A DNA stretch of 26,325 nucleotides from the IMG/VR virus record IMGVR_UViG_2648501669_000017; one strand, written 5' to 3'. The notes under the pieces were generated by a model. It saw only the letters and a program-made list of their open reading frames with translations, searched no databases and had not been told where the DNA came from. A program made the translations under genes and the position numbers. Below are positions 804 to 24,183 of the stretch, in pieces (position 1 is the stretch's first letter; each line of letters begins with the position of its first letter). The stretch is from a virus. Its lineage: Duplodnaviria > Heunggongvirae > Uroviricota > Caudoviricetes.

Positions 804-1141
804 TTTTTATGTGAGCAGAAGATATTCATCAGAAACGATTATGTAAATCATTTTATTTTGCCAACGGCCTCATTGTCGAAAGAAAAGAATACGCCCGTAT
901 TTCCTGAATGGATTGACTTTTTTATCCAACCACACTTCAGCGCACTGCGTTTAAAAAATGCCTCATTCTTATGCGGAATATCATCATTTCATCATGATGT
1001 CTTTGATGAGCGGTGAACACAATACACTTGCGCTGTCTCTTCAGGATGAATCCCCTGGTCTGGTGCCTGTGGGCTGATGTTGCAGCAAAGCTAAGGTCGC
1101 TTAAACGCTACTCAGTATTCACTTTTCAGAGGATGAAATTT

Positions 1142-4100
1142 ATGAACAGGACCAGTCCCTATTATTGTCGCCGCTCAGTACTTTCCTTATTGATATCTGC
1201 CTTGATATATGCCCCGCCCGGGATGGCTGCCTTCACTACTAATGTTATTGGTGTGGTAAACGATGAGACTGTAGATGGCAACCAAAAAGTGGATGAACGA
1301 GGTACAACAAATAACACTCATATTATCAACCATGGCCAGCAGAATGTTCATGGCGGGGTATCTAATGGAAGTCTTATTGAATCTGGTGGATATCAAGATA
1401 TAGGAAGTCATAACAATTTTGTGGGGCAGGCTAATAATACAACCATTAACGGTGGCAGACAGTCAATTCATGACGGGGGTATTTCCACAGGTACGACAAT
1501 CGAGAGTGGCAATCAGGACGTTTATAAAGGGGGTATCAGCAATGGAACGACAATTAAGGGCGGTGCTTCACGCGTAGAGGGAGGGAGTGCGAATGGAATA
1601 CTCATTGATGGTGGTAGCCAGATAGTAAAAGTTCAAGGGCATGCTGATGGTACAACGATAAATAAGTCTGGCTCTCAGGACGTAGTACAAGGAAGTCTGG
1701 CAACGAACACAACCATAAATGGTGGTCGACAGTATGTTGAACAGAGCACAGTAGAAACAACAACCATTAAAAATGGCGGTGAGCAAAGAGTATATGAGAG
1801 CCGTGCGCTGGACACGACGATTGAAGGCGGAACTCAGTCTCTGAATAGTAAGTCAACGGCAAAAAATACGCATATCTATTCTGGTGGCACGCAAATTGTT
1901 GATAACACCAGCACCTCGGATGTTATTGAAGTTTATTCTGGTGGCGTGCTTGATGTTAGTGGTGGTACGGCAACAAATGTTACCCAGCACGATGGTGCAA
2001 TTTTAAAAACTAACACTAACGGTACGACGGTGAGCGGTACGAATAGTGAAGGTGCATTCTCCATCCACAATCACGTGGCAGACAATGTGTTGCTGGAAAA
2101 CGGTGGTCATTTAGACATAAACGCATATGGTTCGGCAAACAAGACGATTATTAAAGATAAAGGAACAATGTCAGTTTTAACCAATGCTAAAGCTGATGCG
2201 ACCCGAATAGATAATGGCGGGGTTATGGATGTTGCAGGAAACGCGACAAATACCATAATTAATGGTGGCACACAGAATATTAATAATTATGGCATAGCCA
2301 CAGGCACCAATATCAACAGCGGAACGCAAAATATCAAAAGCGGCGGGAAAGCTGACACAACAATTATATCCTCCGGGAGCCGGCAGGTTGTTGAGAAAGA
2401 TGGTACGGCAATTGGCAGCAATATTAGCGCCGGAGGCTCGCTGATTGTCTATACCGGCGGTATTGCACATGGGGTTAACCAGGAGACGGGCAGTGCTTTA
2501 GTTGCCAACACGGGTGCAGGGACTGATATCGAAGGATACAACAAGCTCTCTCACTTCACTATTACCGGAGGGGAGGCTAATTATGTTGTGCTGGAAAATA
2601 CCGGCGAACTGACGGTAGTGGCTAAAACCTCGGCGAAAAATACTACCATTGATACTGGCGGTAAGCTGATTGTCCAGAAGGAGGCTAAAACAGATAGCAC
2701 CAGACTTAATAATGGCGGCGTTCTGGAGGTTCAGGACGGTGGTGAGGCTAAGCATGTTGAGCAACAATCCGGCGGCGCATTAATTGCTTCCACGACCTCC
2801 GGAACACTTATCGAAGGAACCAACAGTTATGGTGATGCTTTCTACATCAGGAATTCAGAAGCTAAAAATGTAGTGCTGGAAAACGCTGGCTCATTAACAG
2901 TCGTCACTGGTTCCCGCGCAGTTGACACGATTATTAATGCCAACGGCAAAATGGATGTTTATGGAAAAGATGTTGGCACTGTACTCAATAGTGCTGGCAC
3001 CCAAACAATATATGCCAGTGCCACTTCTGATAAAGCAAATATCAAAGGTGGCAAGCAAACGGTATATGGTTTAGCCACTGAAGCAAATATCGAAAGTGGT
3101 GAACAAATTGTTGATGGTGGGTCAACAGAGAAAACACACATCAATGGTGGCACGCAAACCGTTCAGAATTATGGTAAGGCAATCAATACCGATATCGTCT
3201 CTGGCCTACAACAAATTATGGCAAACGGGACAGCGGAAGGTTCCATTATTAATGGGGGTTCACAGGTAGTTAATGAGGGCGGTCTGGCTGAAAACTCGGT
3301 GCTTAATGACGGCGGCACACTCGATGTGCGGGAGAAAGGCAGCGCAACGGGGATACAGCAGAGTAGCCAGGGCGCTTTGGTTGCAACCACCAGGGCGACG
3401 CGGGTCACAGGAACACGCGCGGATGGCGTCGCGTTCAGCATCGAGCAGGGTGCGGCGAACAATATCCTGCTGGCAAATGGCGGCGTGTTAACCGTGGAGT
3501 CAGACACCTCTTCTGACAAAACACAGGTCAATATGGGCGGACGGGAGATCGTCAAAACAAAAGCCACTGCGACAGGCACGACGCTCACCGGCGGTGAACA
3601 AATTGTCGAGGGTGTGGCGAATGAGACAACAATTAACGACGGCGGAATACAAACAGTTTCAGCTAACGGAGAGGCAATAAAAACAAAGATCAATGAAGGC
3701 GGTACGCTGACAGTCAACGATAATGGCAAAGCGACAGATATCGTCCAGAACAGCGGTGCCGCTCTCCAGACGAGCACGGCTAACGGTATTGAAATCAGCG
3801 GTACTCACCAGTACGGTACTTTTTCCATTTCCGGCAATTTAGCGACCAATATGTTGCTGGAAAATGGCGGTAATTTATTGGTATTAGCAGGTACCGAAGC
3901 TCGCGACTCCACGGTTGGCAAGGGTGGGGCAATGCAAAACCTGGGTCAGGACTCCGCCACAAAGGTTAACTCTGGCGGGCAATATACCCTTGGGCGGTCA
4001 AAAGATGAGTTTCAGGCTCTGGCCCGGGCAGAAGATCTCCAGGTCGCTGGCGGTACGGCAATCGTCTACGCAGGTACGCTGGCGGATGCATCGGTCAGTG

Positions 4101-5722
4101 GCGCGACAGGAAGCCTGTCGTTAATGACGCCACGGGATAATGTTACGCCAGTTAAACTCGAAGGGGCGGTCCGGATTACCGATAGCGCGACATTGACTCT
4201 GGGAAATGGCGTCGATACCACGCTTGCCGACCTGACGGCTGCCAGCCGGGGCAGTGTCTGGCTTAACAGCAATAATTCCTGTGCAGGTACCAGCAACTGC
4301 GAATATAGAGTAAACAGTTTGCTACTCAACGACGGTGATGTTTATTTGTCAGCACAAACAGCAGCGCCTGCCACAACTAACGGTATCTACAATACGCTGA
4401 CAACCAATGAACTTTCCGGTAGCGGTAATTTCTACCTGCATACCAACGTTGCAGGCTCCCGGGGCGATCAACTGGTCGTCAACAACAACGCCACTGGTAA
4501 TTTTAAAATCTTTGTTCAGGATACCGGCGTCAGCCCACAGTCTGACGACGCGATGACGCTGGTGAAAACAGGGGGAGGGGATGCTTCGTTTACGCTGGGC
4601 AATACCGGCGGTTTCGTTGATCTTGGGACCTATGAGTATGTCCTGAAAAGTGACGGCAACAGCAACTGGAACCTGACCAATGATGTCAAACCCAACCCGG
4701 ACCCCATCCCAAATCCAAAGCCAGACCCAAAACCCGATCCAAAGCCAGACCCAAATCCAAAACCAGACCCTACTCCCGATCCAACGCCGACACCCGTTCC
4801 GGAGAAACGCATTACGCCTTCTACGGCAGCCGTACTCAATATGGCAGCAACATTACCGTTGGTATTTGATGCTGAGCTAAACAGTATTCGCGAGCGGTTG
4901 AACATAATGAAAGCGAGTCCACACAACAATAATGTCTGGGGGGCGACGTATAACACCCGTAATAATGTCACCACCGATGCGGGTGCCGGGTTTGAGCAGA
5001 CGCTGACCGGAATGACAGTGGGGATCGACAGCCGTAATGATATTCCTGAAGGAATTACCACGCTAGGCGCTTTTATGGGCTATTCCCATTCACATATCGG
5101 TTTTGATCGCGGAGGACATGGCAGTGTGGGCAGTTATTCTCTGGGCGGCTATGCCAGTTGGGAACATGAAAGTGGTTTCTATCTGGACGGTGTCGTGAAG
5201 CTGAACCGTTTTAAAAGTAACGTAGCAGGTAAAATGAGCAGCGGTGGAGCCGCCAATGGCAGTTACCACAGCAACGGGCTGGGCGGTCACATTGAAACCG
5301 GGATGCGATTTACCGATGGTAACTGGAACCTGACGCCGTATGCATCGTTAACGGGGTTCACCGCTGATAACCCCGAATATCATTTATCCAATGGCATGAA
5401 ATCGAAATCAGTCGATACCCGCAGTATATATCGTGAACTGGGCGCAACGCTGAGTTACAACATGCGTCTGGGGAACGGTATGGAAGTTGAGCCGTGGCTG
5501 AAGGCGGCTGTGCGCAAAGAATTTGTCGATGATAACCGGGTGAAAGTGAATAGTGACGGTAATTTCGTCAATTATTTGTCGGGCAGACGTGGAATATACC
5601 AGGCAGGTATTAAAGCCTCATTCAGCAGTACGTTAAGCGGGCATCTTGGGGTGGGGTATAGCCATAGTGCCGGTGTGGAATCCCCGTGGAACGCGGTAGC
5701 TGGTGTGAACTGGTCGTTCTGA
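1142..5722 (+). CDS. ypjA: Adhesin-like autotransporter (type Va): signal peptide, long repetitive beta-helical passenger domain, Pro-rich linker, C-terminal beta-barrel translocator
   Basis: ORF 1013-5722; ATG at 1142 sits 9 nt after AGAGGA and gives MNRTSPYYCRRSVLSLLISALIYAPPGMAAF (signal-peptide-like), total 1526 aa; iterative ~19-aa GG-x-Q/T-rich passenger repeats; PNPKPDPKPDP linker; C-terminal aromatic-rich barrel ending ...NWSF. Symbol assigned from length plus the adjacent invertase remnant and ssrA-att context, as recalled for E. coli K-12 ypjA. Confidence 0.8.
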   Translation: MNRTSPYYCRRSVLSLLISALIYAPPGMAAFTTNVIGVVNDETVDGNQKVDERGTTNNTHIINHGQQNVHGGVSNGSLIESGGYQDIGSHNNFVGQANNTTINGGRQSIHDGGISTGTTIESGNQDVYKGGISNGTTIKGGASRVEGGSANGILIDGGSQIVKVQGHADGTTINKSGSQDVVQGSLATNTTINGGRQYVEQSTVETTTIKNGGEQRVYESRALDTTIEGGTQSLNSKSTAKNTHIYSGGTQIVDNTSTSDVIEVYSGGVLDVSGGTATNVTQHDGAILKTNTNGTTVSGTNSEGAFSIHNHVADNVLLENGGHLDINAYGSANKTIIKDKGTMSVLTNAKADATRIDNGGVMDVAGNATNTIINGGTQNINNYGIATGTNINSGTQNIKSGGKADTTIISSGSRQVVEKDGTAIGSNISAGGSLIVYTGGIAHGVNQETGSALVANTGAGTDIEGYNKLSHFTITGGEANYVVLENTGELTVVAKTSAKNTTIDTGGKLIVQKEAKTDSTRLNNGGVLEVQDGGEAKHVEQQSGGALIASTTSGTLIEGTNSYGDAFYIRNSEAKNVVLENAGSLTVVTGSRAVDTIINANGKMDVYGKDVGTVLNSAGTQTIYASATSDKANIKGGKQTVYGLATEANIESGEQIVDGGSTEKTHINGGTQTVQNYGKAINTDIVSGLQQIMANGTAEGSIINGGSQVVNEGGLAENSVLNDGGTLDVREKGSATGIQQSSQGALVATTRATRVTGTRADGVAFSIEQGAANNILLANGGVLTVESDTSSDKTQVNMGGREIVKTKATATGTTLTGGEQIVEGVANETTINDGGIQTVSANGEAIKTKINEGGTLTVNDNGKATDIVQNSGAALQTSTANGIEISGTHQYGTFSISGNLATNMLLENGGNLLVLAGTEARDSTVGKGGAMQNLGQDSATKVNSGGQYTLGRSKDEFQALARAEDLQVAGGTAIVYAGTLADASVSGATGSLSLMTPRDNVTPVKLEGAVRITDSATLTLGNGVDTTLADLTAASRGSVWLNSNNSCAGTSNCEYRVNSLLLNDGDVYLSAQTAAPATTNGIYNTLTTNELSGSGNFYLHTNVAGSRGDQLVVNNNATGNFKIFVQDTGVSPQSDDAMTLVKTGGGDASFTLGNTGGFVDLGTYEYVLKSDGNSNWNLTNDVKPNPDPIPNPKPDPKPDPKPDPNPKPDPTPDPTPTPVPEKRITPSTAAVLNMAATLPLVFDAELNSIRERLNIMKASPHNNNVWGATYNTRNNVTTDAGAGFEQTLTGMTVGIDSRNDIPEGITTLGAFMGYSHSHIGFDRGGHGSVGSYSLGGYASWEHESGFYLDGVVKLNRFKSNVAGKMSSGGAANGSYHSNGLGGHIETGMRFTDGNWNLTPYASLTGFTADNPEYHLSNGMKSKSVDTRSIYRELGATLSYNMRLGNGMEVEPWLKAAVRKEFVDDNRVKVNSDGNFVNYLSGRRGIYQAGIKASFSSTLSGHLGVGYSHSAGVESPWNAVAGVNWSF
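4687..4800 (+). repeat. Proline-rich linker encoded by an imperfect tandem DNA repeat (CCAAAGCCAGACCCAAA-type units) inside the autotransporter gene
   Basis: Direct reading: ...cccaacccggaccccatcccaaatccaaagccagacccaaaacccgatccaaagccagacccaaatccaaaaccagaccc...; protein PNPDPIPNPKPDPKPDPKPDPNPKPDPTPDPTPTPVP. Confidence 0.8.
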
Positions 5723-6052: not shown

Positions 6053-6976
6053 ATGGAACTGTTGATTTCCCCAAAAAGATTGTGCCTTTATAATGATTCT
6101 GATCGCCGTGTTACAGCTAAGTTTTTGAACTCAGTTGATAACACCCTTGCGAGAGCATCTGGACAAGTGGTTATAGACTTTTCGACAGTAGAATATGCAG
6201 GTGCTGCAGCTAGCGTAAGGTTGTTTGCTATCATCAGTAGGGCTTATTTTATGGCATTCGGCACAAGTAGTCTTCGATTTATTTGGCCGAAAAAAGAAAA
6301 TAATCCGTATGGGCATCGATATATTGTTGGGACGGGGTTATCGATTGCTCTAATGGCAAATACAGTTGATAAATTAGATGTTCTTACTAAGGAACGCAGG
6401 TACTTTCAGTCTGCTGTGGAACCGTATGAACATTGGGCTAAAACGATGGAATTTATTGATTCAAAAGCAATTCTCACATTTGAGCAATATCTTTTGGTCT
6501 CCTCAGCCCTTAGTGAGGCAATGCTGAATGTTTCATATCATGCATATGAACATCCAGACTTTGCTGGTGCTACAGAGCATATGCAAGGGAAACGATGGTG
6601 GCAGAGTTGTTGGTACAACCCTGACACAGACAAGGTTGTCTTTATTATTTATGATCTTGGGCTTGGCATACATAAATCATTTACTTCAGCCTCTCCGTTG
6701 TTTACTGGGTATGACGACGTGACATCTGTGTCAACAGCCCTGACAGGAGGACAGTCCAGATATGTTAACGCTGGACGTGGTAATGGTTCTGAGGATATAA
6801 AGAGACCTATAGGGTCTGGCTGTGCGAATTCAGAATCACTTTTGGTGTTCACAGGGAATGTTAAGTACAGCTATAATTCAAGAAATGAGGTTCCCAAATG
6901 CGAGTGGATACCTGAGTACATGCCGGGAACATTGATTGAATGGTCATTAGTTCCGAGGAGAGGAGAAGATGGTTAA
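6053..6976 (+). CDS. Hypothetical protein with STAS-like N-terminal region and GHKL/HATPase_c-like ATP-binding C-terminal region (anti-sigma-factor-kinase-like)
   Basis: ATG 6053 preceded by TGAGGTG; 307 aa; by-eye motifs EAMLNVSYHA (N-box E-x3-N-x3-HA, aa 155-164), DLGLG (G1, aa 201-205), GRGNGS (G2, aa 241-246), GSG (aa 254-256); N-terminal QVVIDFSTVEYAGAAASVRLF resembles STAS/anti-sigma-antagonist folds. Confidence 0.6.
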   Translation: MELLISPKRLCLYNDSDRRVTAKFLNSVDNTLARASGQVVIDFSTVEYAGAAASVRLFAIISRAYFMAFGTSSLRFIWPKKENNPYGHRYIVGTGLSIALMANTVDKLDVLTKERRYFQSAVEPYEHWAKTMEFIDSKAILTFEQYLLVSSALSEAMLNVSYHAYEHPDFAGATEHMQGKRWWQSCWYNPDTDKVVFIIYDLGLGIHKSFTSASPLFTGYDDVTSVSTALTGGQSRYVNAGRGNGSEDIKRPIGSGCANSESLLVFTGNVKYSYNSRNEVPKCEWIPEYMPGTLIEWSLVPRRGEDG

Positions 6977-7310
6977 CATCGTCATAGCAAGGGATTTCTC
7001 AAAGATGCCATTTGGAAGGTTCAAGTCTGACAGCCCGAACAGTGCTGAGCGTTTTCGTAAGGACTTTCTGGTTCCTGCATTAAAATCTGGTGAGCGTGAG
7101 GTTGTCGTAGATTTTACGGGTATAAATCATGGGATTGGTTCTTCGTTTCTAGAGGAGGCCTTTGGAGGGCTTGTTAGGAAGGAAGGTGTACCTAAGGCTG
7201 ACATTAAGGCAAAACTAATTATAAAAAGTGATTTGCCGTTCTATAAAGATCAAATTTTTAGATATATTGAAATGGCTAATCCAGAAAGGAAGCCTTTCCA
7301 AAGGAGTTGA
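6969..7310 (+). CDS. Small STAS-like protein (DUF4325-like), candidate partner of the upstream ATPase
   Basis: ATG 6969 overlaps the upstream stop (6974-6976) and follows AGGAGAGGAGAAG; 113 aa; EVVVDFTGINHGIGSSFLEEAF is paralogous in pattern to the N-terminal segment of ORF 6053-6976. Confidence 0.55.
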   Translation: MVNIVIARDFSKMPFGRFKSDSPNSAERFRKDFLVPALKSGEREVVVDFTGINHGIGSSFLEEAFGGLVRKEGVPKADIKAKLIIKSDLPFYKDQIFRYIEMANPERKPFQRS

Positions 7311-7311
7311 T

Positions 7312-7941
7312 TTGAACACCGTTGATATTAAGGACACCCTTGCAGGGGTGTCCACTTACGCATGGATGTTTAGTGTTGTGAGTATTATCTTAGTGTTTAT
7401 TGGATGGTTTGTTACTTACAATAATTCACTGAAGATTGCTACTCGCTCTGAATCTAAATCGATTATAGATGCGATTGCTAAAATTTTAAACGAAATATCG
7501 GATTTGTCTCTGGATTACTGGGTTAATAAGTCAACACCACCAGATTCTAATCCATTTAAGAAAAAAAGTTTTAAGAACTCTAATGGATTGCATACTCAGT
7601 CGGCGAAAATATATTTAACGGCAATTCATGGAAAAGCCATACAAATAAATAAATACATTAATCTTCTCGATGAGAGGGGGATAAAAATAACAATTTCGTA
7701 TTTTTCTAATATTATAGATGAAGCTACTATGGAATGTGAGAAATCATATTGTTTTAATAAGTCATATAGGGTTTTTCGCGCTCAGAATGTATCTAGTGCT
7801 TGTATCGATTTCATAATGCATTTATATGATTCTTTTCAAAAAAATCATCCTCCACGTAAGCCTGTATATGTATTGAAAACATTAAAACAATTGGATTGTT
7901 ACTTGGATAAATGGCATAATGAATTATGTGGGCGGCAATAA
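7312..7941 (+). CDS. Hypothetical membrane-anchored protein, AT-rich; start uncertain (TTG 7312 after AAGGAG, or ATG 7366)
   Basis: ORF 7228-7941; the GTG at 7228 would overlap the upstream gene by 83 nt; AAGGAG (7301-7306) + 5 nt + TTG 7312 sits directly after the upstream stop; single N-terminal hydrophobic helix MFSVVSIILVFIGWFVTY; Lys/Asn-rich, visibly low GC. Confidence 0.5.
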   Translation: MNTVDIKDTLAGVSTYAWMFSVVSIILVFIGWFVTYNNSLKIATRSESKSIIDAIAKILNEISDLSLDYWVNKSTPPDSNPFKKKSFKNSNGLHTQSAKIYLTAIHGKAIQINKYINLLDERGIKITISYFSNIIDEATMECEKSYCFNKSYRVFRAQNVSSACIDFIMHLYDSFQKNHPPRKPVYVLKTLKQLDCYLDKWHNELCGRQ

Positions 7942-7953: not shown

Positions 7954-9120
7954 TCATTGTATAATGTATTTGATGGAGCTTTTTCCGTCGTATTCTTTGA
8001 GATATCGACCATAGTGCCTGAAAAGCATCTCCGGCCCTTTATGCCCCATTTGAGCTGCAAGCCAAAACAGGTTTGCTCCTCGGCTGATATGGCTGGTGGC
8101 GAATGTATGCCTGGTTTGATATGGGTTTCTGTAACGAATACCTGCTTTTCGCAATGTTGGCACCCATGCTTTTTTCCTAATTGCATCAGCACTTGCCCAA
8201 GGCTTATTGGTCTTTGGATCTTCAAAGACAGTAGTATCCTTCATGAATGTAAATGGCTTCTGATTTATCAGCGCCAACATTGCCTCTTCTGTCAGTTCAA
8301 CTTTCCGAGTACCTGCTTTTGTCTTTGTCCCTTTGATAACACCGACAACACTTGCGCTCTGGACATAGGCAGTTTTTCCAACAAAGTCGATATCACGCCA
8401 TCGAAGGGCACATAATTCAGAACTACGCAGGCCTGTATGTATAGCGAACCGGAACAGATTTTCCCATTGTTTGTTTCCGGCTGCTGCTAGTAATGCATCA
8501 ACTTCTGCTGGTGATAGCGGATCAACTACGTAGCTGCTTTCTGCTTCTGACTTATCACTTTGGTAGCGCGAAGCTGTTACTAACGATACGGGGTTAATTT
8601 GAAGTACCCCATCGGTCACGGCTTCATCAAGTGCTGACCGCAGGAAAGATAACTGGTTGCGAATTGTTTTTAAGGTCGTTTTCTGATTTTGAATCCACGC
8701 TTTCAGGGTTGCTGGTGTTAATTCACTTGCAGGGCAAATGTGAAGTGAGGCTAACGCACTACGGCATTTTTTATAGCCACCAATCGTAGAGGGTGAAAGT
8801 TTTCTTGTTTCGCAGATTTCAAGATATTCGTCCAGGTACATCTTTACCGTTTTGCCTGCAGCAGCATTACCAAAAATTTTCAAACGAGCAGAACGGGGAA
8901 AATATTCTGCATAAATGAATGTTCCCCTTTCGATCTTATTATGGATTTCGCCGAGTGTACGCTCGGCGTATTTAATGTTCTTTGGTGTTACTTCCAGATT
9001 GGAAAGCGGCTCACGACATCTAACTCCTTTGTAGGTGAAAGTTATATTGATCGTTTCTCCCTGGCGGTGTTTCCTGATTGTTACGCCGCGCGGTAGTTTG
9101 AGCAGTTTTGTCTGGCCCAT
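7954..9120 (-). CDS. int: Phage integrase, tyrosine recombinase family with N-terminal arm-binding domain
   Basis: 388 aa; ATG at 9120 after GTGAGGT; C-terminal catalytic signature ...TRHTFATSHISRGANLFWLAAQMGHKGPEMLFRHYGRY (R...H-x-x-R...Y); N-terminal LPRGVTIRKHRQGETINITFTYKGVRCRE arm-type domain. Confidence 0.9.
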   Translation of the reverse strand: MGQTKLLKLPRGVTIRKHRQGETINITFTYKGVRCREPLSNLEVTPKNIKYAERTLGEIHNKIERGTFIYAEYFPRSARLKIFGNAAAGKTVKMYLDEYLEICETRKLSPSTIGGYKKCRSALASLHICPASELTPATLKAWIQNQKTTLKTIRNQLSFLRSALDEAVTDGVLQINPVSLVTASRYQSDKSEAESSYVVDPLSPAEVDALLAAAGNKQWENLFRFAIHTGLRSSELCALRWRDIDFVGKTAYVQSASVVGVIKGTKTKAGTRKVELTEEAMLALINQKPFTFMKDTTVFEDPKTNKPWASADAIRKKAWVPTLRKAGIRYRNPYQTRHTFATSHISRGANLFWLAAQMGHKGPEMLFRHYGRYLKEYDGKSSIKYIIQ

Positions 9121-9328: not shown

Positions 9329-10195
9329 TTAACGAATAGTGTCGTTACTTTGAAGTACAGCAAATGCCATTAATACTTCTAAAGTATATCTTCTATAAAA
9401 TTTAACAAAACCAACATAGAAAACATAGACGAAGAAAAAGCTAAGCATTATTGAAAGTAAACTATAAAGATAATCACTATGAGTACATAATCGATAAATA
9501 AAGGTTGGAACTGATACCCAAAATGAAATTATAAAGATTAAACATATGTTTCTGCAAAAACCATATAATGCAACATAGTTTTGAATTTTTGTTTGATGTT
9601 GTTTTGAAAACTCATAAACATAATGATATGCCAATCTGAAGAGATCATCATCAAGTCCGTTTTTATCTTGTAATAATTGGCGATTTGTTATGAACTTTTT
9701 CTCATAACCTTCTTTGATCATTAACCATGTTGTATTAGCTAAATGAAATGGTAGAGATTGAGAATAACATAGTTTTTGTGTTGTAAAATCCCATAGTATT
9801 ATTGGGCATAATACGCATTTGATTATGCGATTCTTTATTTTTGTTTTTTTATCAGCGCTTCTCTCATCGCATGATGGGCTACAAATGCTTTCTGAGGTAT
9901 CTATCAATTTTTTAAATAGATATTTGGAAGGATATCCTAATTCTTTATTCATGTGTTTTTCGATAAAAAATGCTGACGTGATAGAAATAAAATGTCCAGC
10001 TATATAAGATATAATAACTATTGAAGCGTAGTTCAAAATGCCAAAGATTTGACTTTGACCTCTGAGCAATTCACTTAAGTCAATAACAATATCTAGATCG
10101 AATGTCAAACCACAGAAATACATTAATAGGATAAAAAAACCACCTGGTATTAAATATCCAAGAAAGTCATAGAATGAGAATGGATTTTGATTCAT
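9329..10195 (-). CDS. Hypothetical polytopic membrane protein (about 4 TM helices, two at each end), very AT-rich cargo gene
   Basis: ORF 9329-10219; the first in-frame ATG is at 10195 with GGAGAG 6 nt upstream; hydrophobic segments FLGYLIPGGFFILLMYFCGLTF, IFGILNYASIVIISYIAGHFISI, ICLIFIISFWVSVPTFIY, LYSLLSIMLSFFFVYVFYVGFV; no motif recognised. Confidence 0.6.
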   Translation of the reverse strand: MNQNPFSFYDFLGYLIPGGFFILLMYFCGLTFDLDIVIDLSELLRGQSQIFGILNYASIVIISYIAGHFISITSAFFIEKHMNKELGYPSKYLFKKLIDTSESICSPSCDERSADKKTKIKNRIIKCVLCPIILWDFTTQKLCYSQSLPFHLANTTWLMIKEGYEKKFITNRQLLQDKNGLDDDLFRLAYHYVYEFSKQHQTKIQNYVALYGFCRNICLIFIISFWVSVPTFIYRLCTHSDYLYSLLSIMLSFFFVYVFYVGFVKFYRRYTLEVLMAFAVLQSNDTIR

Positions 10196-10303
10196 TGTTG
10201 CTCTCCAATAATTGTTCAATTTGTAATATAACCTATATCTATATGTTAATAAATTACTTATATGTTCTTTTATGGCAGAGTTTGAATTCGTACGTGCTGA
10301 TTT

Positions 10304-12911: not shown

Positions 12912-13604
12912 TTAATTGTGTCGCTTAAGGGTTTGTGACTGGCTGATTAAGACCTTTCCAAAGACCATAAACCGGTGTTCATTTTCGCTGGTAATTCCCC
13001 ATTCACGGTAAATCTGGTTATCAGAAATCACCAGTAGTTTGTCAGGTATCATTTGCAGTCGTTTGACATAAATTTTATCATCAAAACCAAATACATAGAT
13101 ACCATCTCCATCAAACTGATTGATACTGACATCAACGAAGATGAGATCTCCTGGCTCAATGGTTGGACACATACTGTCCCCACGAACGTTGATAACTTTA
13201 ATGTGATTGGCTGGCCGTCCGCCAAACATCGATACAGCATTATCAGTTCTGTATTCAATGGCATGAATCACATCAATGACATCACCGCCCTGGATAAGGC
13301 CATTTCCCGCACTGGCACTGACATCCAGCATTTCAATACGGAATACATCCTTCACCTGCGCAACATCCTCACTAATACTGTTTTTACATACAGTATTACT
13401 TTTGACGTCTGAGGTAAAGAGATCAGCAATATCAACACCTAAGCTCCTGGCAATATTACTCAGGGCTTGTTCAGTGAATTGTTTCTGCTTACCTGTTTCC
13501 AGGCGTGAGATATTCGCCGCATCCACTCCTATTGCTTCAGCGAGATCGGCGATTTTCATGTTCTTCGCCTGGCGAAGTTGTCTGACTCGGTTTCCTATGT
13601 TCAT
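12912..13604 (-). CDS. cI: CI-type prophage repressor: N-terminal HTH (XRE family) + C-terminal S24 LexA-like autopeptidase domain
   Basis: 230 aa; HTH IADLAEAIGVDAANISRLETG; Ala-Gly at ...SASAGNG; Ser/Lys dyad motifs GDSM and YVKRL; divergent from cro; no Shine-Dalgarno before the ATG. Confidence 0.9.
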   Translation of the reverse strand: MNIGNRVRQLRQAKNMKIADLAEAIGVDAANISRLETGKQKQFTEQALSNIARSLGVDIADLFTSDVKSNTVCKNSISEDVAQVKDVFRIEMLDVSASAGNGLIQGGDVIDVIHAIEYRTDNAVSMFGGRPANHIKVINVRGDSMCPTIEPGDLIFVDVSINQFDGDGIYVFGFDDKIYVKRLQMIPDKLLVISDNQIYREWGITSENEHRFMVFGKVLISQSQTLKRHN

Positions 13605-15798: not shown

Positions 15799-16289
15799 GC
15801 ATGAGTCTTTTGAATGACGTTCAGAAATTCATTGAAGCCCATCCGGGGTGTACTTCCGGAGACATTGCGGATGCTTTTGCAGGTTACTCACGGCAGCGCG
15901 TTCTGCAGTCTGCAAGCAAGTTACGTCAGAGTGGGCGTGTGGCTCACCGTTGTGAAGGAGATACACGCAGACATTTCCCGCGCCTGACTGAGAGAGCGCA
16001 GGAGCCGGAACCACAACCAGTTCGTGAAACCAGACCTGTGCGCAATTTCTATGTCGGCACTAACGACCCGCGGGTGATTTTGTGCCTGACCCGCCAGGCG
16101 GAAGAACTGGAGTCCAGGGGCTTATACCGTCGTGCTGCAACGGTGTGGATGGCGGCATTCCGTGAAAGCCACTCCCAGCCAGAACGAAACAATTTTCTGG
16201 CGCGTCGTGAACGGTGTTTACGGAAAAGCAGTAAGCGGGCTGCATCAGGTGAAGAGTGGTATCTCTCAGGGAATTACGTGGGGGCTTAA
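15795..16289 (+). CDS. PerC-family-like transcriptional regulator with N-terminal winged-helix region
   Basis: 164 aa; start ATG overlaps the O-like stop; segment LESRGLYRRAATVWMAAF...ERNNFLARRERC resembles the conserved core of PerC/Pch activators as I recall them (QQGLWRRAARRW...C..RR.FC). Confidence 0.5.
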   Translation: MSMSLLNDVQKFIEAHPGCTSGDIADAFAGYSRQRVLQSASKLRQSGRVAHRCEGDTRRHFPRLTERAQEPEPQPVRETRPVRNFYVGTNDPRVILCLTRQAEELESRGLYRRAATVWMAAFRESHSQPERNNFLARRERCLRKSSKRAASGEEWYLSGNYVGA

Positions 16290-16942
16290 TGAGTAATAAA
16301 TATTGCCAGGCGCTGGCGGAACTGCGGAACAAACCAGCCCATGAACTGAAGGAAGTGGGCGATCAGTGGCGCACGCCGGACAACATTTTCTGGGGAATTA
16401 ACACTCTGTTTGGCCCGTTTGTTCTGGATCTGTTTACTGACGGTGATAACGCCAAATGTGCTGCGTATTACACGGCGGAAGACAACGCGCTGGCGCATGA
16501 CTGGTCAGAACGCCTTGCGGAGCTTAAAGGTGCTGCCTTTGGTAATCCCCCATACAGCCGCGCCAGTCAGCATGAGGGGCAATACATCACCGGCATGCGT
16601 TACATCATGAAGCATGCCAGTGCCATGCGTGATAAAGGCGGGCGCTATGTTTTCCTGATCAAAGCTGCCACCAGCGAAGTGTGGTGGCCGGAAGATGCAG
16701 ATCATATTGCTTTTATTCGCGGGCGTATTGGTTTTGAACTGCCTGCCTGGTTTATCCCGAAGGATGAGAAGCAGGTGCCGACAGGCGCTTTCTTCGCTGG
16801 TGCTATTGCTGTTTTCGACAAGACCTGGAAGGGACCGGCAATCAGCTACATCGGGCGCTATGAACTTGAGGCATGTGGTGAGGCCTTTCTGGCGCAGGTT
16901 CGCCAGCAGGCAGAAAAACTGGTCAGGGAGATGGCGGCATGA
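16289..16942 (+). CDS. Phage Dam-family N6-adenine DNA methyltransferase (YfdM-type)
   Basis: Start ATG 16289 overlaps the upstream TAA (TAATG); catalytic motif FGNPPYS; conserved WRTPD and DLFTDG segments typical of the phage N-6-adenine-methyltransferase family. Confidence 0.8.
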   Translation: MSNKYCQALAELRNKPAHELKEVGDQWRTPDNIFWGINTLFGPFVLDLFTDGDNAKCAAYYTAEDNALAHDWSERLAELKGAAFGNPPYSRASQHEGQYITGMRYIMKHASAMRDKGGRYVFLIKAATSEVWWPEDADHIAFIRGRIGFELPAWFIPKDEKQVPTGAFFAGAIAVFDKTWKGPAISYIGRYELEACGEAFLAQVRQQAEKLVREMAA

Positions 16943-19478: not shown

Positions 19479-19495
19479 TTTTGTGGAGGAAGTTG

Positions 19496-19867
19496 ATGCG
19501 TGATATTCAAATGGTTCTTGAACGTTGGGGGGCATGGGCGGCTAATAATCATGAGGATGTGACCTGGTCGTCCATTGCTGCCGGTTTTAAGGGATTACTT
19601 CCTTCAAAAGTAAAATCCCGTCCGCAATGTTGTGACGATGACGCGATGATCATTTGCGGGTGCATGGCCCGTCTGAAAAAGAACAACAGCGATTTGCACG
19701 ATTTATTAGTAGATTATTATGTAGGTGGTATGACGTTTATGGCGCTTGCCCGTAAACATGGGCGTTCTGATTGCTGGGTTGGGCGCTTATTGCAAAAGGC
19801 AGAAGGCATCATTGAAGGTATGTTGATAATGTTAGAAATAGAATTGGAAATGGACTCAAATATCTAG
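19496..19867 (+). CDS. Q: Late-gene antiterminator Q (QuuD / phage-82-type Q family)
   Basis: ATG 19496 with GGAGGA 5 nt upstream (track start 19481 is TTG); [34 protein letters not shown]...[17 protein letters not shown] matches my recollection of DLP12 QuuD; sits just before the late region. Confidence 0.8.
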
Positions 19868-19994: not shown

Positions 19995-20029
19995 GGCGCT
20001 AATGTACAAGGTTTTTAGTAATTAGCGCC
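19995..20029. terminator. 9-bp inverted repeat GGCGCTAAT...ATTAGCGCC (17-nt loop) with a downstream T-rich tract on the plus strand: candidate tR'-type late terminator and/or terminator of the minus-strand gene 20040-21491
   Basis: Direct reading; located between the Q stop and the 3' end of the convergent ATPase gene. Confidence 0.4.
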
Positions 20030-20039
20030 TGCTGGTTTG

Positions 20040-21491
20040 TTATTTTATTTTGCTTACTATATTTGTAATAAGTGGGTCAAATTTCTCATCAATAATTTCA
20101 ATATATTTTTTTATTGCTAAAGTTCTAATTACTTCCTCCTCACATTCTGCTTCTTTAGCAATTGCTTGAGTGTAATTGTGATGATCACTAATCCCTTCCT
20201 TTTTTATTAACCAATCAAAATCAATATGATACTCCTTGTAGAGGAATTTTTTTACTTCCTCATGTTGAAATACTTCTACTTCTGGTGGCCTATTGCCAGG
20301 GAAAGAAAATAAATCATCTTTAATGTTTTCTCCAACATCTGCATCTCTTACGGCAATAACATTAAGGCCTGCTTTCTTGAATACCTCGACTGCTTGTCGG
20401 ACTGCATCTTTATCTCCAATATCAGTGATTTGAATGGATTTAAGAATGTCTCTCCGCTTTGCTCTAATTACTTCACTAAGTAAAACTTTTGCAAACTGGT
20501 CTTCTACGCAAATATGCAGCCCTTTAAACTGCCCATCAGACAGTATTGATCTCACATGAGTTGTTGAAATTCCATCTTTGATATAGACACCAGTCTGATC
20601 TCTAATAAGTAATTTTCGTGCATCAGGAGGTAAAGCATTTAATATCACACTTGAGTGTGTTGATAATATTATTTGATGTTTTCTACGTTGACATACTTCC
20701 ATTAAATATTTTGCAAATTCATACTGTGCGCTTTCATGAAGAGATGTTTCTGGTTCTTCTAGTACGAAAAGACTTTGCTCTGGAGCTGTTTCAAGCATAT
20801 CAACCGTATAAAGAACTCTTCCTTCGCCAAACCCCATGTTATTTTCAGAATAAGAATACCCAAGTCTTTCAACAATACCAATTTCTGAACGACGTGCTCT
20901 ATGAGAAATTCCTTGGAATGCGATATCATCATATGGATGACCTATTATTTTTGCCATCTTCAATATTACTGAATGGTCGACGCTTCTTCTCTCTGTTAAA
21001 TCAAAGTCTTTACCGCCATAAACACTTATATCTCTACGTTCTACTTTTGGAATATAGACAGTAAAACCAATGTAAAAACAGTGTCTTTCTGGTTGTCTTT
21101 TATATCCAGACCAAGAAGACTTTATGCGAGTGACAGTCACATCTTGTGTTTTCGTTGAATCATTTGTTTCATATTTATAAATGACACTGGCGTCATTATC
21201 GAAAGGGGCTGGATCGGCTTTAGATACAGGGAAAAAATCTTTAATATATAATCTCTTATATTCACGGGCTGTAACTGGTTTTTTATATGCGCATATTGCT
21301 AACTGCCCAAGAGTGCTTTTCCCAGCGCCGTTTAGCCCTGATATTGCAGTTACCGGAAAATTTATATTTAATGTTAGTTTTTTTATTCCTCGAAATCCAT
21401 TTATCTCTAGACTTTTAATTACGGAGCCAAAGTTTGAGTATCTATTTTTATCAAAGTACATGCATTTTAGTATATTTTTTATGTCTGACAT
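20040..21491 (-). CDS. OLD-family-like ATPase-nuclease: N-terminal ABC-type ATPase + C-terminal TOPRIM-like domain (candidate anti-phage defence protein)
   Basis: 483 aa; ATG 21491 with AGGAAAG 8 nt upstream; Walker A GLNGAGKST (aa 52-60), signature-like SENNMGFGEG (aa 214-223), Walker B LFVLEEPE (aa 241-248), H-loop LSTHS (aa 276-280); TOPRIM-like acidic motifs HICVEDQ (E330) and IAVRDADVGEN (D383/D385); visibly AT-rich; transcribed against the late operon. Confidence 0.75.
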   Translation of the reverse strand: MSDIKNILKCMYFDKNRYSNFGSVIKSLEINGFRGIKKLTLNINFPVTAISGLNGAGKSTLGQLAICAYKKPVTAREYKRLYIKDFFPVSKADPAPFDNDASVIYKYETNDSTKTQDVTVTRIKSSWSGYKRQPERHCFYIGFTVYIPKVERRDISVYGGKDFDLTERRSVDHSVILKMAKIIGHPYDDIAFQGISHRARRSEIGIVERLGYSYSENNMGFGEGRVLYTVDMLETAPEQSLFVLEEPETSLHESAQYEFAKYLMEVCQRRKHQIILSTHSSVILNALPPDARKLLIRDQTGVYIKDGISTTHVRSILSDGQFKGLHICVEDQFAKVLLSEVIRAKRRDILKSIQITDIGDKDAVRQAVEVFKKAGLNVIAVRDADVGENIKDDLFSFPGNRPPEVEVFQHEEVKKFLYKEYHIDFDWLIKKEGISDHHNYTQAIAKEAECEEEVIRTLAIKKYIEIIDEKFDPLITNIVSKIK

Positions 21492-21755
21492 TTTTTATCT
21501 TTCCTGATATGAATGAGAGTTATCTTTAGAAAAACAATAAATTTATAACATTTAGAGATGTATTCATCAATGATTGGGTAAATATCGTGCATTTGTTGTT
21601 TTAAAATCAACCAAGAATGATTTTTATAATTATGTCAATTGCCTTATTATCAATATGGTAATGTTTTCTCAATCTAATTATTGGGGGGAATATATTATTT
21701 ACAATCGTAAATAATCAGATATGCTCTCAAGAGTGGTTACTTCGCCACACAACTT

Positions 21756-21781
21756 AAACCCGCCGTCGAGCGGGTTTTTTT
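21756..21781 (+). terminator. Rho-independent terminator (plus strand) in the AT-rich region upstream of the small wHTH gene
   Basis: AAACCCGC-cgtcga-GCGGGTTT followed by T-run (tttttttg). Confidence 0.6.
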
Positions 21782-21903
21782 GTACCTGTAAACCTGGTGC
21801 AGTACGGTAAACACGCTGGTGGTCGTGAATACTGACTTTTTATCTTGCTGGCTTTTTAGACAAGAGTTATTGGTATGTCATGTTAACCAGAAGGAAAAAA
21901 GAC

Positions 21904-22247: not shown

Positions 22248-23300
22248 ATGAAAAATACTGTAAAAATAAACAGTGTTGATTTAATCAACGCTGATTGCCT
22301 GCATTTTATTCAGTCCCTGCCTGATGATTCCATTGACCTGATTGTTACCGATCCGCCTTACTTCAAGGTGAAACCCAACGGTTGGGACAATCAGTGGAAA
22401 GGGGACGAAGATTACCTTAAGTGGCTGGACCACTGTCTGGCCCAGTTCTGGCGGGTGTTGAAACCTGCCGGAAGCCTTTACCTGTTCTGTGGGCATCGCC
22501 TGGCATCTGATATTGAGATCATGATGCGTGAACGTTTCAACGTGCTTAACCATATCATCTGGGCGAAGCCGTCCGGACGTTGGAATGGGTGTAATAAAGA
22601 AAGTCTGCGCGCATATTTTCCTGCCACAGAGCGCGTTCTGTTTGCTGAACATTACCAGGGGCCATATCGCGGCAAAAGTGACGACTATGCGGCAAAAGAA
22701 AGGGAACTCAAACAGCACATAATGGCACCGCTGATATCGTATTTCAGGGATGCTCGTGCCGAACTGGGTATAACGGCAAAACAAATTGCCGAAGCCACAG
22801 ATAAGAAAAATATGGTTTCCCACTGGTTTGGTGCCAGTCAGTGGCAGTTGCCGAATGAGGCTGACTATCGGAAGTTACAGGCACTGTTTTCCCGTATAGC
22901 GGCAGAGAAGTTTCAGGAACAACAACTGGAACAACCACACCACCAGCTGGTGGCATCTTATGATTCACTGAATCGCAAATATTCTGAATTGCTGGATGAG
23001 TTTAAATCTCTCCGGCGCTATTTCTCCGTATCAGTCTCTGTGCCTTATACCGATGTCTGGACGCATAAGCCCGTTCAGTTCTACCCGGGTAAACATCCGT
23101 GCGAGAAACCGGCGGATATGCTCCGGCAAATAATCAATGCCAGTAGTCGACCTGGTGATCTGGTTGCTGATTTCTTTATGGGATCCGGTTCCACAATAAA
23201 AGCAGCAATGGCGCTGGGGCGTCGGGCGTTAGGTGTTGAACTTGAGTCAGAGCGGTTTAATCAGACGGTGAAAGAGGTAAGTGAACTGGTGGGGAAATAA
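22248..23300 (+). CDS. Orphan DNA methyltransferase, beta-class (motif IV DPPY N-terminal, motif I FxGxG C-terminal); N6-adenine or N4-cytosine specific
   Basis: 350 aa; IVTDPPYF (aa 32-39) and ADFFMGSGST (aa ~308-317); central insertion with an HTH-like segment (ITAKQIAEATD); no adjacent restriction endonuclease recognisable. Confidence 0.85.
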   Translation: MKNTVKINSVDLINADCLHFIQSLPDDSIDLIVTDPPYFKVKPNGWDNQWKGDEDYLKWLDHCLAQFWRVLKPAGSLYLFCGHRLASDIEIMMRERFNVLNHIIWAKPSGRWNGCNKESLRAYFPATERVLFAEHYQGPYRGKSDDYAAKERELKQHIMAPLISYFRDARAELGITAKQIAEATDKKNMVSHWFGASQWQLPNEADYRKLQALFSRIAAEKFQEQQLEQPHHQLVASYDSLNRKYSELLDEFKSLRRYFSVSVSVPYTDVWTHKPVQFYPGKHPCEKPADMLRQIINASSRPGDLVADFFMGSGSTIKAAMALGRRALGVELESERFNQTVKEVSELVGK

Positions 23301-23307
23301 TTCTGGT

Positions 23308-23330
23308 GGCCACGTTGCGTGGCCTTTTTA
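23308..23330 (+). terminator. Rho-independent terminator after the methyltransferase gene, upstream of the lysis cassette
   Basis: GGCCACG-ttg-CGTGGCC followed by TTTTTA. Confidence 0.6.
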
Positions 23331-23376
23331 TTTCCAACACAGCACCCGCAAATATCGCGAGGTGAGAGATGACGAA

Positions 23377-23703
23377 ATGCCTCATAACCCAAATACCTGG
23401 CTGGAGTTGGTACAGAGCTGGTGGCGTGGAGACACACCACTGGGCGCAGTAATTATGTCGATCGTTATGGCTGGTTTACGTATTGCCTATTTTGGTGGCG
23501 GTGGCGGCTGGAAGCGAAAAACGCTCGAGATTTTGCTCTGTGGCGCTCTGACACTGACCTTTGCATCCGCGCTTGAGTATGTCGGATGGCCTAAATCACT
23601 TTCTGTTGCTATTGGTGGTGGGGTGGGGCTGATCGGGGTCGATGCTATTCGTGGTGCGGCAATGAGAGTAATCGGTAACAAGTTTGGTAGCTCGAAGGAG
23701 TAA
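23377..23703 (+). CDS. Putative holin (about 3 TM helices), not lambda-S-like
   Basis: Sits immediately before endolysin R with 3-nt spacing; hydrophobic helices LGAVIMSIVMAGLRIAYF, LEILLCGALTLTFASALEYVGW, SVAIGGGVGLIGVDAI; charged C-terminus; start ambiguous (ATG 23377 or GTG 23362). Confidence 0.55.
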   Translation: MPHNPNTWLELVQSWWRGDTPLGAVIMSIVMAGLRIAYFGGGGGWKRKTLEILLCGALTLTFASALEYVGWPKSLSVAIGGGVGLIGVDAIRGAAMRVIGNKFGSSKE

Positions 23704-23706
23704 TTT

Positions 23707-24183
23707 ATGCAGGAACTAAATCCTCAGCGTAAAGCTTTCCTTGATATGGTGGCCTGGTCAGAAGGAACGGATAACGGGCGACAACCGACACGTAACCACG
23801 GTTATGATGTTATTGTTGGTGGTGAACTGTTCACTGATTACTCCGATCACCCTCGCAAACTTGTCACGCTAAACCCCAAACTCAAATCAACAGCCGCCGG
23901 ACGTTACCAGCTTCTTTCACGCTGGTGGGATGCTTACCGTAAACAGCTTGGCCTGAAAGATTTTTCTCCAGAAAGCCAGGACGCTGTAGCTCTGCAGCAG
24001 ATTAAAGAGCGTGGCGCTTTACCGATGATTGACCGCGGCAATATTCGTCAGGCAATCGACCGTTGCAGCAATATCTGGGCTTCACTGCCGGGCGCTGGTT
24101 ATGGTCAGTTCGAGCATAAGGCTGACAGCCTGATTGCAAAATTCAAAGAAGCGGGCGGAACGGTCAGAGAGATTGAGGTATGA
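23707..24183 (+). CDS. R: Endolysin R (lambda-type lytic transglycosylase)
   Basis: 158 aa; near-identical to lambda R as recalled (...[80 protein letters not shown]...). Confidence 0.95.

Follow-up and report, generated by a model that had tools for sequence, protein, structure and literature searches.

An ABC-ATPase/TOPRIM gene in a lambdoid prophage

The stretch of DNA analyzed here, which we call the window, is the viral record IMGVR_UViG_2648501669_000017 (Caudoviricetes; 26,325 nucleotides, nt), and our subject is a single gene within it, at 20040..21491 on the minus strand (stop codon included), which the open reading frame (ORF) listing gives as an ATG-initiated ORF of 483 amino acids (aa) and which we assign to the HEC-04 family of ABC-ATPase/TOPRIM proteins. 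An initial annotation of this DNA had described an AT-rich ORF of exactly this length, position and strand, lying between the antiterminator gene Q and the lysis genes; the ORF listing and the coordinates agree with that description, with the gene placed between Q and the holin and lysozyme genes (23281-24183) and antisense to both. GC content is 0.33-0.36 across the region of the gene, or about 34%, against 0.50-0.57 on either side, and a Shine-Dalgarno core, GGA, can be read 11-13 nt 5′ of the ATG. Because it extends over 1.45 kb of 34%-GC DNA and has hundreds of full-length homologues, the ORF is not a chance occurrence, and we regard it as a real gene. An identical protein is present in RefSeq (WP_032083250.1) under the label “ATP-dependent nuclease”, and we will refer to the gene and its product as the nuclease.

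In a single polypeptide the protein joins an N-terminal ABC ATPase to a TOPRIM fold in its C-terminal part, after which comes a helical domain. The ATPase region spans aa 1-300 (20592..21491, on the minus strand, as are all the protein features that follow) and is delimited by its motifs and their invariance in the family, by matches to AAA_15, AAA_21, AAA_23 and SMC_N, and by structure prediction with AlphaFold2 (AF2) and structural comparison with Foldseek. All the motifs quoted in the initial annotation are present. The Walker A motif GLNGAGKST, with K58, occupies aa 52-60 (nt 21312-21338); a signature-like MGFGEGR (aa 219-225) lies 16 aa before the Walker B motif LFVLEEPE (aa 241-248, nt 20748-20771); and an H-loop, STHS, with H279, is found at aa 277-280. 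The TOPRIM nuclease core (aa ~320-400, 20292..20534) is defined by the invariant E330/D331 in the motif CVEDQ (aa 328-332, nt 20496-20510) and by D383-x-D385 in RDADVGE (aa 382-388, nt 20328-20348). An all-helical domain with the invariant residues E404, W427 and H437/H438 (aa 403-483, 20043..20285) is packed after this core. In an alignment of 63 family sequences, with a mean column identity of 76%, the Walker A, signature, Walker B, H-loop, CVEDQ and RDADVGE motifs are all invariant.

The AF2 model of the nuclease has a predicted local distance difference test score (pLDDT) of 78.7 and a predicted template modeling score (pTM) of 0.73. Between Walker A and the signature motif it places short inserts, largely of beta-strand and including one short helix, part of this region being of low confidence, and no coiled-coil is predicted in the model. 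The structure prediction recommended by the initial annotation favors its OLD-like reading: Foldseek searches with the full chain rank the Thermus OLD protein TsOLD (6P74) first (E = 1.4e-14), followed by GajA and the retron Eco8 effector. These three align over the whole chain, while SMC, Rad50 and PtuA align over the ATPase head only. The TOPRIM-plus-helical-domain fold of the model is hence supported at the level of the predicted fold and by family-specific profiles, though not by the generic Pfam TOPRIM model.

Assignment to the HEC-04 family

Among PADLOC defense profiles the top match of the nuclease is HEC-04 (PDLC04149; E = 3.9e-47, 159 bits), with aa 5-410 aligned to positions 7-403 of the 494 in the profile. 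The second model, retron ATPase-Toprim_I-B, follows at 2.5e-22 over aa 238–470, and the lower-ranking AriA, NsnB, MAD3, GajA and PtuA models match the ATPase core only, those of AriA and GajA over no more than the 60-80 aa that surround Walker B; the Old model does not appear among the top 25 PADLOC matches. Searched on their own, the last 188 aa still match HEC-04 significantly (E = 7e-7) and, at E = 3e-5, retron ATPase-Toprim_I-B. The experimentally tested HEC-04 representative scores 5e-53 on its own PADLOC model, at a coverage of 0.80/0.83, and the coverage of the nuclease is similar; moreover, HEC-04 is the best PADLOC model for ten out of ten representatives chosen between 52% and 25% identity to the nuclease. 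General-purpose collections are less specific. Pfam detects the ATPase alone in the full protein (AAA_15, E = 2e-19; AAA_21, E = 3e-14) and gives no DUF4435 match for the isolated C-terminal domain, NCBIfam yields no equivalog and only weak partial ATPase matches far under the cut-offs, and the PHROGs family that matches the nuclease, phrog_3940 (E = 1.5e-77), has no assigned function.

The initial annotation had read the gene as a compact OLD-like ABC ATPase with a TOPRIM domain, and this reading is sustained by the defense-family profile, by the AF2 model and its Foldseek matches, and by alignment to the tested HEC-04 protein. Its expectations for individual profiles fared unevenly: AAA_15 and AAA_21 are significant, but the OLD/TOPRIM profile stays below threshold, and no DUF4435/PARIS signal is seen at the sequence level. 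It had also found the protein unusually short for an OLD, which is true with respect to Class 1 OLDs but does not single it out within the HEC-04 family. A HMMER search of the whole library returned 128 representatives (clusters at 50% identity) at E ≤ 1e-30, and, since nearly all of the full-length ones measure 475–530 aa, compact size is the norm for the family.

Two relatives have measured defense phenotypes. HEC-04, or Hma-embedded candidate 04, was tested as WP_044502283.1 from E. coli MOD1-EC5853 and protects E. coli from T4, T5 and other phages; its K62A and E319A/D375A/D377A mutants lose defense, and its induction or over-expression is toxic (Payne et al., 2024, bioRxiv 10.1101/2024.01.29.577857). 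Compared with the HEC-04 sequence given in Table S2 of that work, which is about 400 aa long and leaves the last ~80 aa of the nuclease outside the comparison, the nuclease shows 26% identity (E = 5e-30) over its aa 1–402. In this pairwise alignment K62 of HEC-04 corresponds to K58, E319 to E330 (IFVEDEFAK against ICVEDQFAK) and D375/D377 to D383/D385, and the four residues on which HEC-04 defense depends are thus conserved in the nuclease as K58, E330, D383 and D385, all of them invariant in the 63 sequences. IbfA, encoded by conjugative plasmids of the IncI type (R64, pUA1135), is likewise reported to be a PADLOC HEC-04 homologue, and to interfere with a P22-like phage in an abortive-type manner (PMC12111858). 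The IbfA-like plasmid protein WP_000741348.1, used here in place of the published IbfA, is 23% identical to the nuclease (E = 2e-19), VED and DxD motifs included, and scores 109.5 bits on the HEC-04 model against 159 for the nuclease.

We consider it probable that the gene is a one-gene anti-phage defense system of the HEC-04 family, belonging to the compact OLD-like branch that includes IbfA and carried as exchangeable cargo by a lambdoid prophage of E. coli. Several observations weigh against this interpretation. Defense has been measured only in relatives that are 26% (HEC-04) and about 23% (IbfA-like) identical to the nuclease. The Pfam OLD-like_TOPRIM model PF20469 is sub-threshold both on the full protein (E = 0.16) and on the C-terminal domain (E = 0.077), scoring 13-14 bits where the cut-off is 23.2, and a profile of the family searched against PDB sequences, 6p74 among them, aligns through the ATPase motifs only and leaves the TOPRIM region undetected. 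IbfA is reported to alter phage transcription and not to deplete ATP, so that the effector step is perhaps not simple nucleolysis (PMC12111858); and the phenotype of YbjD, a Class 1 OLD, needs the ATPase and not the TOPRIM domain, which means that the weight of the two domains can vary among relatives. The context of the Shewanella homologue contains neither mobile-element nor defense neighbors. Lastly, a promoter scan returned 12 sites where 9.0 are expected by chance, and no promoter for the nuclease gene stood out.

Close homologues, at 57–78% identity, occur in Klebsiella, Vibrio, Pseudomonas, Aeromonas, Shewanella, Methylomonas and other genera. In E. coli the gene is present in 11 of 5,426 complete genomes (0.2%), at an identity of 99.8% or more, in every case on the chromosome and always within a prophage; a search of 50,697 phage records did not find it, save for one distant partial match in a Burkholderia phage. 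Elsewhere the settings are diverse, comprising a satellite-like element, integrase islands and a small islet. A Klebsiella homologue with 75% identity is located at one end of a small element (L004-L006:1-9452) that carries integrase, AlpA, AAA_25 and protease-capsid genes, together with putAbiC, HicB-like and HEPN genes, and that resembles a phage satellite of the capsid-forming kind; one Klebsiella copy lies within a prophage. The Pseudomonas homologue adjoins a ThsB-TIR-like gene, and the Aeromonas homologue is found beside a DUF3427/HNH gene in an island flanked by an integrase. No neighboring gene is conserved across the homologue contexts, and no flanking DNA is shared with the homologues of other genera, where similarity ends at the coding sequence. 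The homologues are solo genes, with no helicase in any of five contexts. HEC-04-type nucleases are thus not confined to Hma systems and IncI plasmids but are also carried by temperate phages and by satellite-like elements.

This pattern of mobility could also be that of a selfish, addiction-type toxic nuclease, or of a neutral passenger of mobile elements that affords no useful protection from phages. The toxicity of HEC-04 on induction agrees with such an account, as does the movement of homologues among unrelated contexts without common flanks, and the rarity and near-clonality of the E. coli copies (0.2% of complete genomes, at least 99.8% identity) suggest recent spread over long retention. 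We nevertheless find this account very improbable: the family is under strong purifying conservation across genera (76% mean column identity, with invariant catalytic residues), the measured defense of its relatives depends on those same residues, homologues are co-located with other defense genes, and there is no antitoxin-like partner.

The slot between Q and the probable late promoter

The left neighbor of the cassette is a Q antiterminator gene of the QuuD type (19481..19867, plus strand; 128 aa; PF06530, E = 1.8e-51), annotated as “antiterminator Q family protein” and distantly related to Q21 (E = 2.6e-8). At the right edge of the cassette, on the plus strand, lies what is probably a late promoter/terminator module resembling pR′-tR′ (21698..21785; promoter scan, fold z = -3.0). 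It comprises a promoter-like TTTACA-16 nt-TATGCT (21698-21725), a leader of about 30 nt and a strong intrinsic terminator, the hairpin AAACCCGCCGTCGAGCGGGTTT followed by a T run (21756-21785). The merely distant relation of this Q to Q21 makes it impossible to transfer known qut/pR′ sequences to this locus, and a literature search on quuD, nmpC and the late promoter returned nothing useful. The reading of the module as pR′/qut/tR′ stems instead from its co-variation with the type of Q and from its layout of promoter, short leader and terminator.

The boundaries of the cassette emerge from comparison with related loci. The same backbone of Q and methylase genes is found in many E. coli genomes in which an antisense porin gene replaces the nuclease gene, and identity with the porin locus resumes exactly at 21698, the first base of the promoter-like site. 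Phage SfV, with another type of Q, has no cargo; its terminator lies about 107 bp after Q, and the sequence that it has in common with our locus starts only at the terminator, the promoter-proximal stretch being different. All five loci with a QuuD-type Q contain the leader string AAGAGTGGTTACTTCGCCACACA (L001:5330-5352, L002:2664-2686, L018:2204-2226 in mEp460_4F5, L019:1290-1312 in PhiR40_1 and L020:2177-2199 in phage cdtI), and in each of them it lies just downstream of a variable antisense cargo. Besides the nuclease and the porin, this slot holds a 308-aa protein of unknown function in mEp460_4F5 (L018:1186-2112, minus strand), a 148-aa protein, also of unknown function, in PhiR40_1 (L019:747-1193, minus strand), and a 147-aa protein together with a 313-aa DUF6731 protein in phage cdtI (L020:683-1126 and 1130-2071, both minus strand); none of these has a PADLOC match. 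The initial view of the gene as a prophage moron at a variable site is well borne out by these related phages, and by their location the other occupants are candidate defense or lysogenic-conversion genes. The antisense slot between Q and pR′ hence yields several cargo genes of unknown function that can be tested for defense.

The earlier proposal that the gene is antisense to the late operon and silenced by late read-through is at odds with these comparisons. The promoter-terminator module at 21698-21785 places it upstream of the probable pR′. From this arrangement we infer a position for the cargo after Q but ahead of pR′, outside the late transcript; late transcripts would then not cross the gene, and transcription converging on it would be limited to early-right read-through beyond Q. 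On the 5′ side the gene has an AT-rich region of its own (21492..21697, minus strand), specific to this cargo, which includes the Shine-Dalgarno sequence and is absent both from the porin locus and from the homologues of other genera. Candidate sigma-70 sites lie upstream of the gene on the minus strand, at 21704->21677 and 21653->21626, and are not statistically distinguished by the promoter scan. It is plausible that the nuclease gene is transcribed from this upstream region in the lysogen, given that it has its own AT-rich 5′ region and shares the antisense orientation of nmpC. On the 3′ side, a hairpin (GGCGCTAAT...ATTAGCGCC; 19995..20029) is found 10 nt past the stop codon. In a minus-strand fold it reaches -15.6 kcal/mol, a stability that none of 200 shuffles equaled (z = -5.5); a T-rich run follows it on the plus strand, and there is no U-run on the strand of the nuclease gene. 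The hairpin may mark the 3′ end of the gene, or it may act as an insulator or terminator between Q read-through and the cargo.

The interchangeability of the slot also speaks to whether the nuclease could serve the DNA metabolism of the phage itself, as a RecF-, SbcC- or SMC-like factor in repair, recombination or replication and not in defense. Its N-terminal ~100 aa do weakly match the heads of SMC_N, RecF, Rad50 and MukB, and the RusA, KilA-N and DUF968 genes of the nin region adjoin it. These SMC/RecF-type matches, however, are confined to the generic P-loop head and remain under the family cut-offs, and the predicted structure lacks a coiled-coil. The gene is, furthermore, antisense and dispensable, with closely related phages holding a porin or unrelated cargo in its place, and it is all but missing from the phage records searched. 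A role in phage DNA metabolism consequently strikes us as extremely unlikely.

A more ambitious proposition would hold that the Q-to-pR′ interval of QuuD-type lambdoid phages is a dedicated hotspot for antisense cargo, expressed in the lysogen and insulated from late transcription, of which the nuclease is the one recognizable defense gene and whose other occupants are uncharacterized defense systems, and that this HEC-04 subfamily cuts tRNA, like P2 OLD and AriB, and not DNA. As a whole we find this proposition doubtful, and we retain the narrower reading of the nuclease as a HEC-04-family defense gene borne as exchangeable prophage cargo.

The wider surroundings are those of a lambdoid prophage, with an integrase gene (7954–9120, minus strand), a cI-like repressor gene (12912–13604, minus strand) and further genes for cII, a Dam-like methylase, RusA, KilA-N and DUF968 proteins. 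To the right of the nuclease gene come a small ORF, an N6/N4 methyltransferase gene (22248–23300) and the holin and lysozyme genes. According to the ORFs and to annotation and profile scans of the neighbors, the nuclease gene has no helicase, reverse transcriptase or further TOPRIM/ATPase gene in its vicinity, and the initial statement that no helicase partner is nearby therefore stands; neither an Rfam scan nor a tRNA scan, each covering the full window, gave a match, and hence no retron non-coding RNA or tRNA cargo was found. The prophage encodes two DNA methyltransferases, the Dam-like one in the nin region (16256-16942, plus strand) and, before the holin gene, the N6/N4 enzyme, a type II-like orphan on the plus strand. 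We considered the latter as a partner of the nuclease and discarded it as part of the phage backbone, since it is present in SfV and in porin-bearing loci that have no nuclease.

Elsewhere in the window, three ORFs of low GC content (0.31-0.39) lie at 6053-7941 on the plus strand, between the gene for an AIDA-type autotransporter (1013-5722) and the integrase gene. They encode proteins of 307 and 237 aa, neither with a Pfam match, and between these a STAS-like DUF4325 protein of 113 aa; none of the three has a PADLOC match, and together they may constitute another cargo islet, at the end of the prophage. Beside the integrase gene, the stretch of lowest GC content in the window (0.29) contains a 296-aa ORF (9329-10219, minus strand) that has no Pfam match and, among PADLOC models, resembles only Csx27, and that weakly (E = 2.6e-6).

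Proposed mechanism and relation to known systems

By analogy with the tested HEC-04 protein, IbfA and the wider OLD family, we infer a mechanism in which the ATPase head, with its family-specific inserts, would sense an infection cue or gate the response to it, and the binding or hydrolysis of ATP would license the two-metal TOPRIM site (E330, D383, D385) for cleavage of nucleic acid. Such cleavage would stop the superinfecting phage and would probably harm the cell as well, in a manner resembling abortive infection, and the outcome would be protection of the lysogen population and of the resident prophage. Precedents for the substrate diverge. Vc OLD nicks DNA, and GajA, TsOLD and BpOLD cut it; P2 OLD cleaves tRNA in an ATPase-dependent manner, and AriB also cuts tRNA. 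In P2 Old and Vc OLD, defense depends on ATPase and TOPRIM residues alike; Vc OLD has K48 in Walker A, D313 in Walker B and a DxD at 468/470. For the nuclease, we put the chances of a DNA substrate at about even, in which case it would nick or cleave phage DNA during replication, on the precedent of Vc OLD and GajA, and consider a tRNA substrate, as for P2 OLD and AriB, somewhat less probable. The lean towards DNA is a weak one, and comes from HEC-04 restricting T4 and T5 although both of these phages carry tRNA genes. Lysogens carrying the prophage may resist T-even or T5-like and other phages, which is of relevance to phage typing and phage therapy. A compact protein without a dimerization insert would also make a convenient minimal model for studying the gating of TOPRIM nucleases by ABC ATPases, and for asking whether the target is DNA or tRNA.

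Among characterized systems the most obvious comparison is with the Class 1 OLD proteins (P2 Old, the Thermus scotoductus OLD 6P74, Vc OLD and YbjD), which are likewise solo proteins combining an ABC ATPase with a TOPRIM domain, P2 Old being also encoded by a prophage. One could argue from this that the nuclease is a canonical Class 1 OLD and a functional equivalent of P2 Old, activated by the loss of RecBCD activity and killing through cuts in the tRNA anticodon stem. The plan is indeed the same, in one prophage gene without a partner, TsOLD is the best full-length match in PDB by structure and by sequence, and ATPase-dependent tRNA cleavage has been shown for P2 OLD. Other lines of evidence nonetheless separate the two. 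The TOPRIM sequence models of Class 1 OLDs do not recognize the nuclease: PF20469 is sub-threshold, and in PADLOC the Old model is outside the top 25, while HEC-04 heads the list by about 25 orders of magnitude. At 483 aa, the nuclease is below the 500-600 aa used as a length filter for Class 1, and its spacing between Walker A and Walker B is about 80 residues shorter than that of Vc OLD. The long helical dimerization domain described for TsOLD and GajA, which in Class 1 OLDs forms an insert in the ATPase, is not predicted in the AF2 model. Finally, the tested HEC-04 gave no protection from lambda, the classic target of P2 Old. We thus judge equivalence to P2 Old unlikely, and return to the assignment of the nuclease to HEC-04.

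PARIS, Gabija and the type I-B retrons, including Eco8, are likewise defense systems that combine an ABC ATPase and a TOPRIM nuclease, and GajA and the Eco8 effector occupy the second to fourth places in the full-chain structural ranking. Each of these systems, however, has a component that the nuclease lacks. PARIS requires the DUF4435 TOPRIM of AriB and a full-length AriA match, and the nuclease has neither; Gabija has a UvrD/PcrA-like helicase, GajB, next to GajA, and none lies beside the nuclease; retrons of type I-B (Class 3 OLD) have an adjacent reverse transcriptase and an msr/msd non-coding RNA, but no reverse transcriptase gene is among the neighbors of the nuclease gene and Rfam gave no match in the window.

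With HEC-04 itself, the nuclease has in common its PADLOC match, the union of ATPase and TOPRIM domains in a single polypeptide, and the essential K and E/DxD residues. The tested HEC-04 gene, by contrast, is embedded in a chromosomal Hma (helicase-methylase-ATPase) system, whereas the nuclease is lambdoid-prophage cargo with no Hma helicase or ATPase among its neighbors; the Hma embedding is the context in which HEC-04 was discovered, and the family model does not require it. The inserts of the ATPase head, presumed to form the sensor, also differ between the two proteins, and phage range and trigger may differ with them. IbfA resembles the nuclease as a two-domain protein of ATPase and TOPRIM carried by a mobile element, but it is plasmid-borne and longer (518-521 aa).

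On the evidence of its sequence and modeled fold, the nuclease would work like an OLD-family nuclease, as a member of the HEC-04 branch and not as a canonical Class 1 OLD or as a component of PARIS, Gabija or a retron. It is a diverged, prophage-borne member of a family that was already named and experimentally validated and that has been in PADLOC since 2023. Given that HEC-04 had been named, modeled and validated, and that the gene was already annotated as a nuclease, it is not new in kind. Its assignment leaves current concepts unchanged, while placing a gene labeled merely as an ATP-dependent nuclease in an experimentally backed defense family and extending a known kind.

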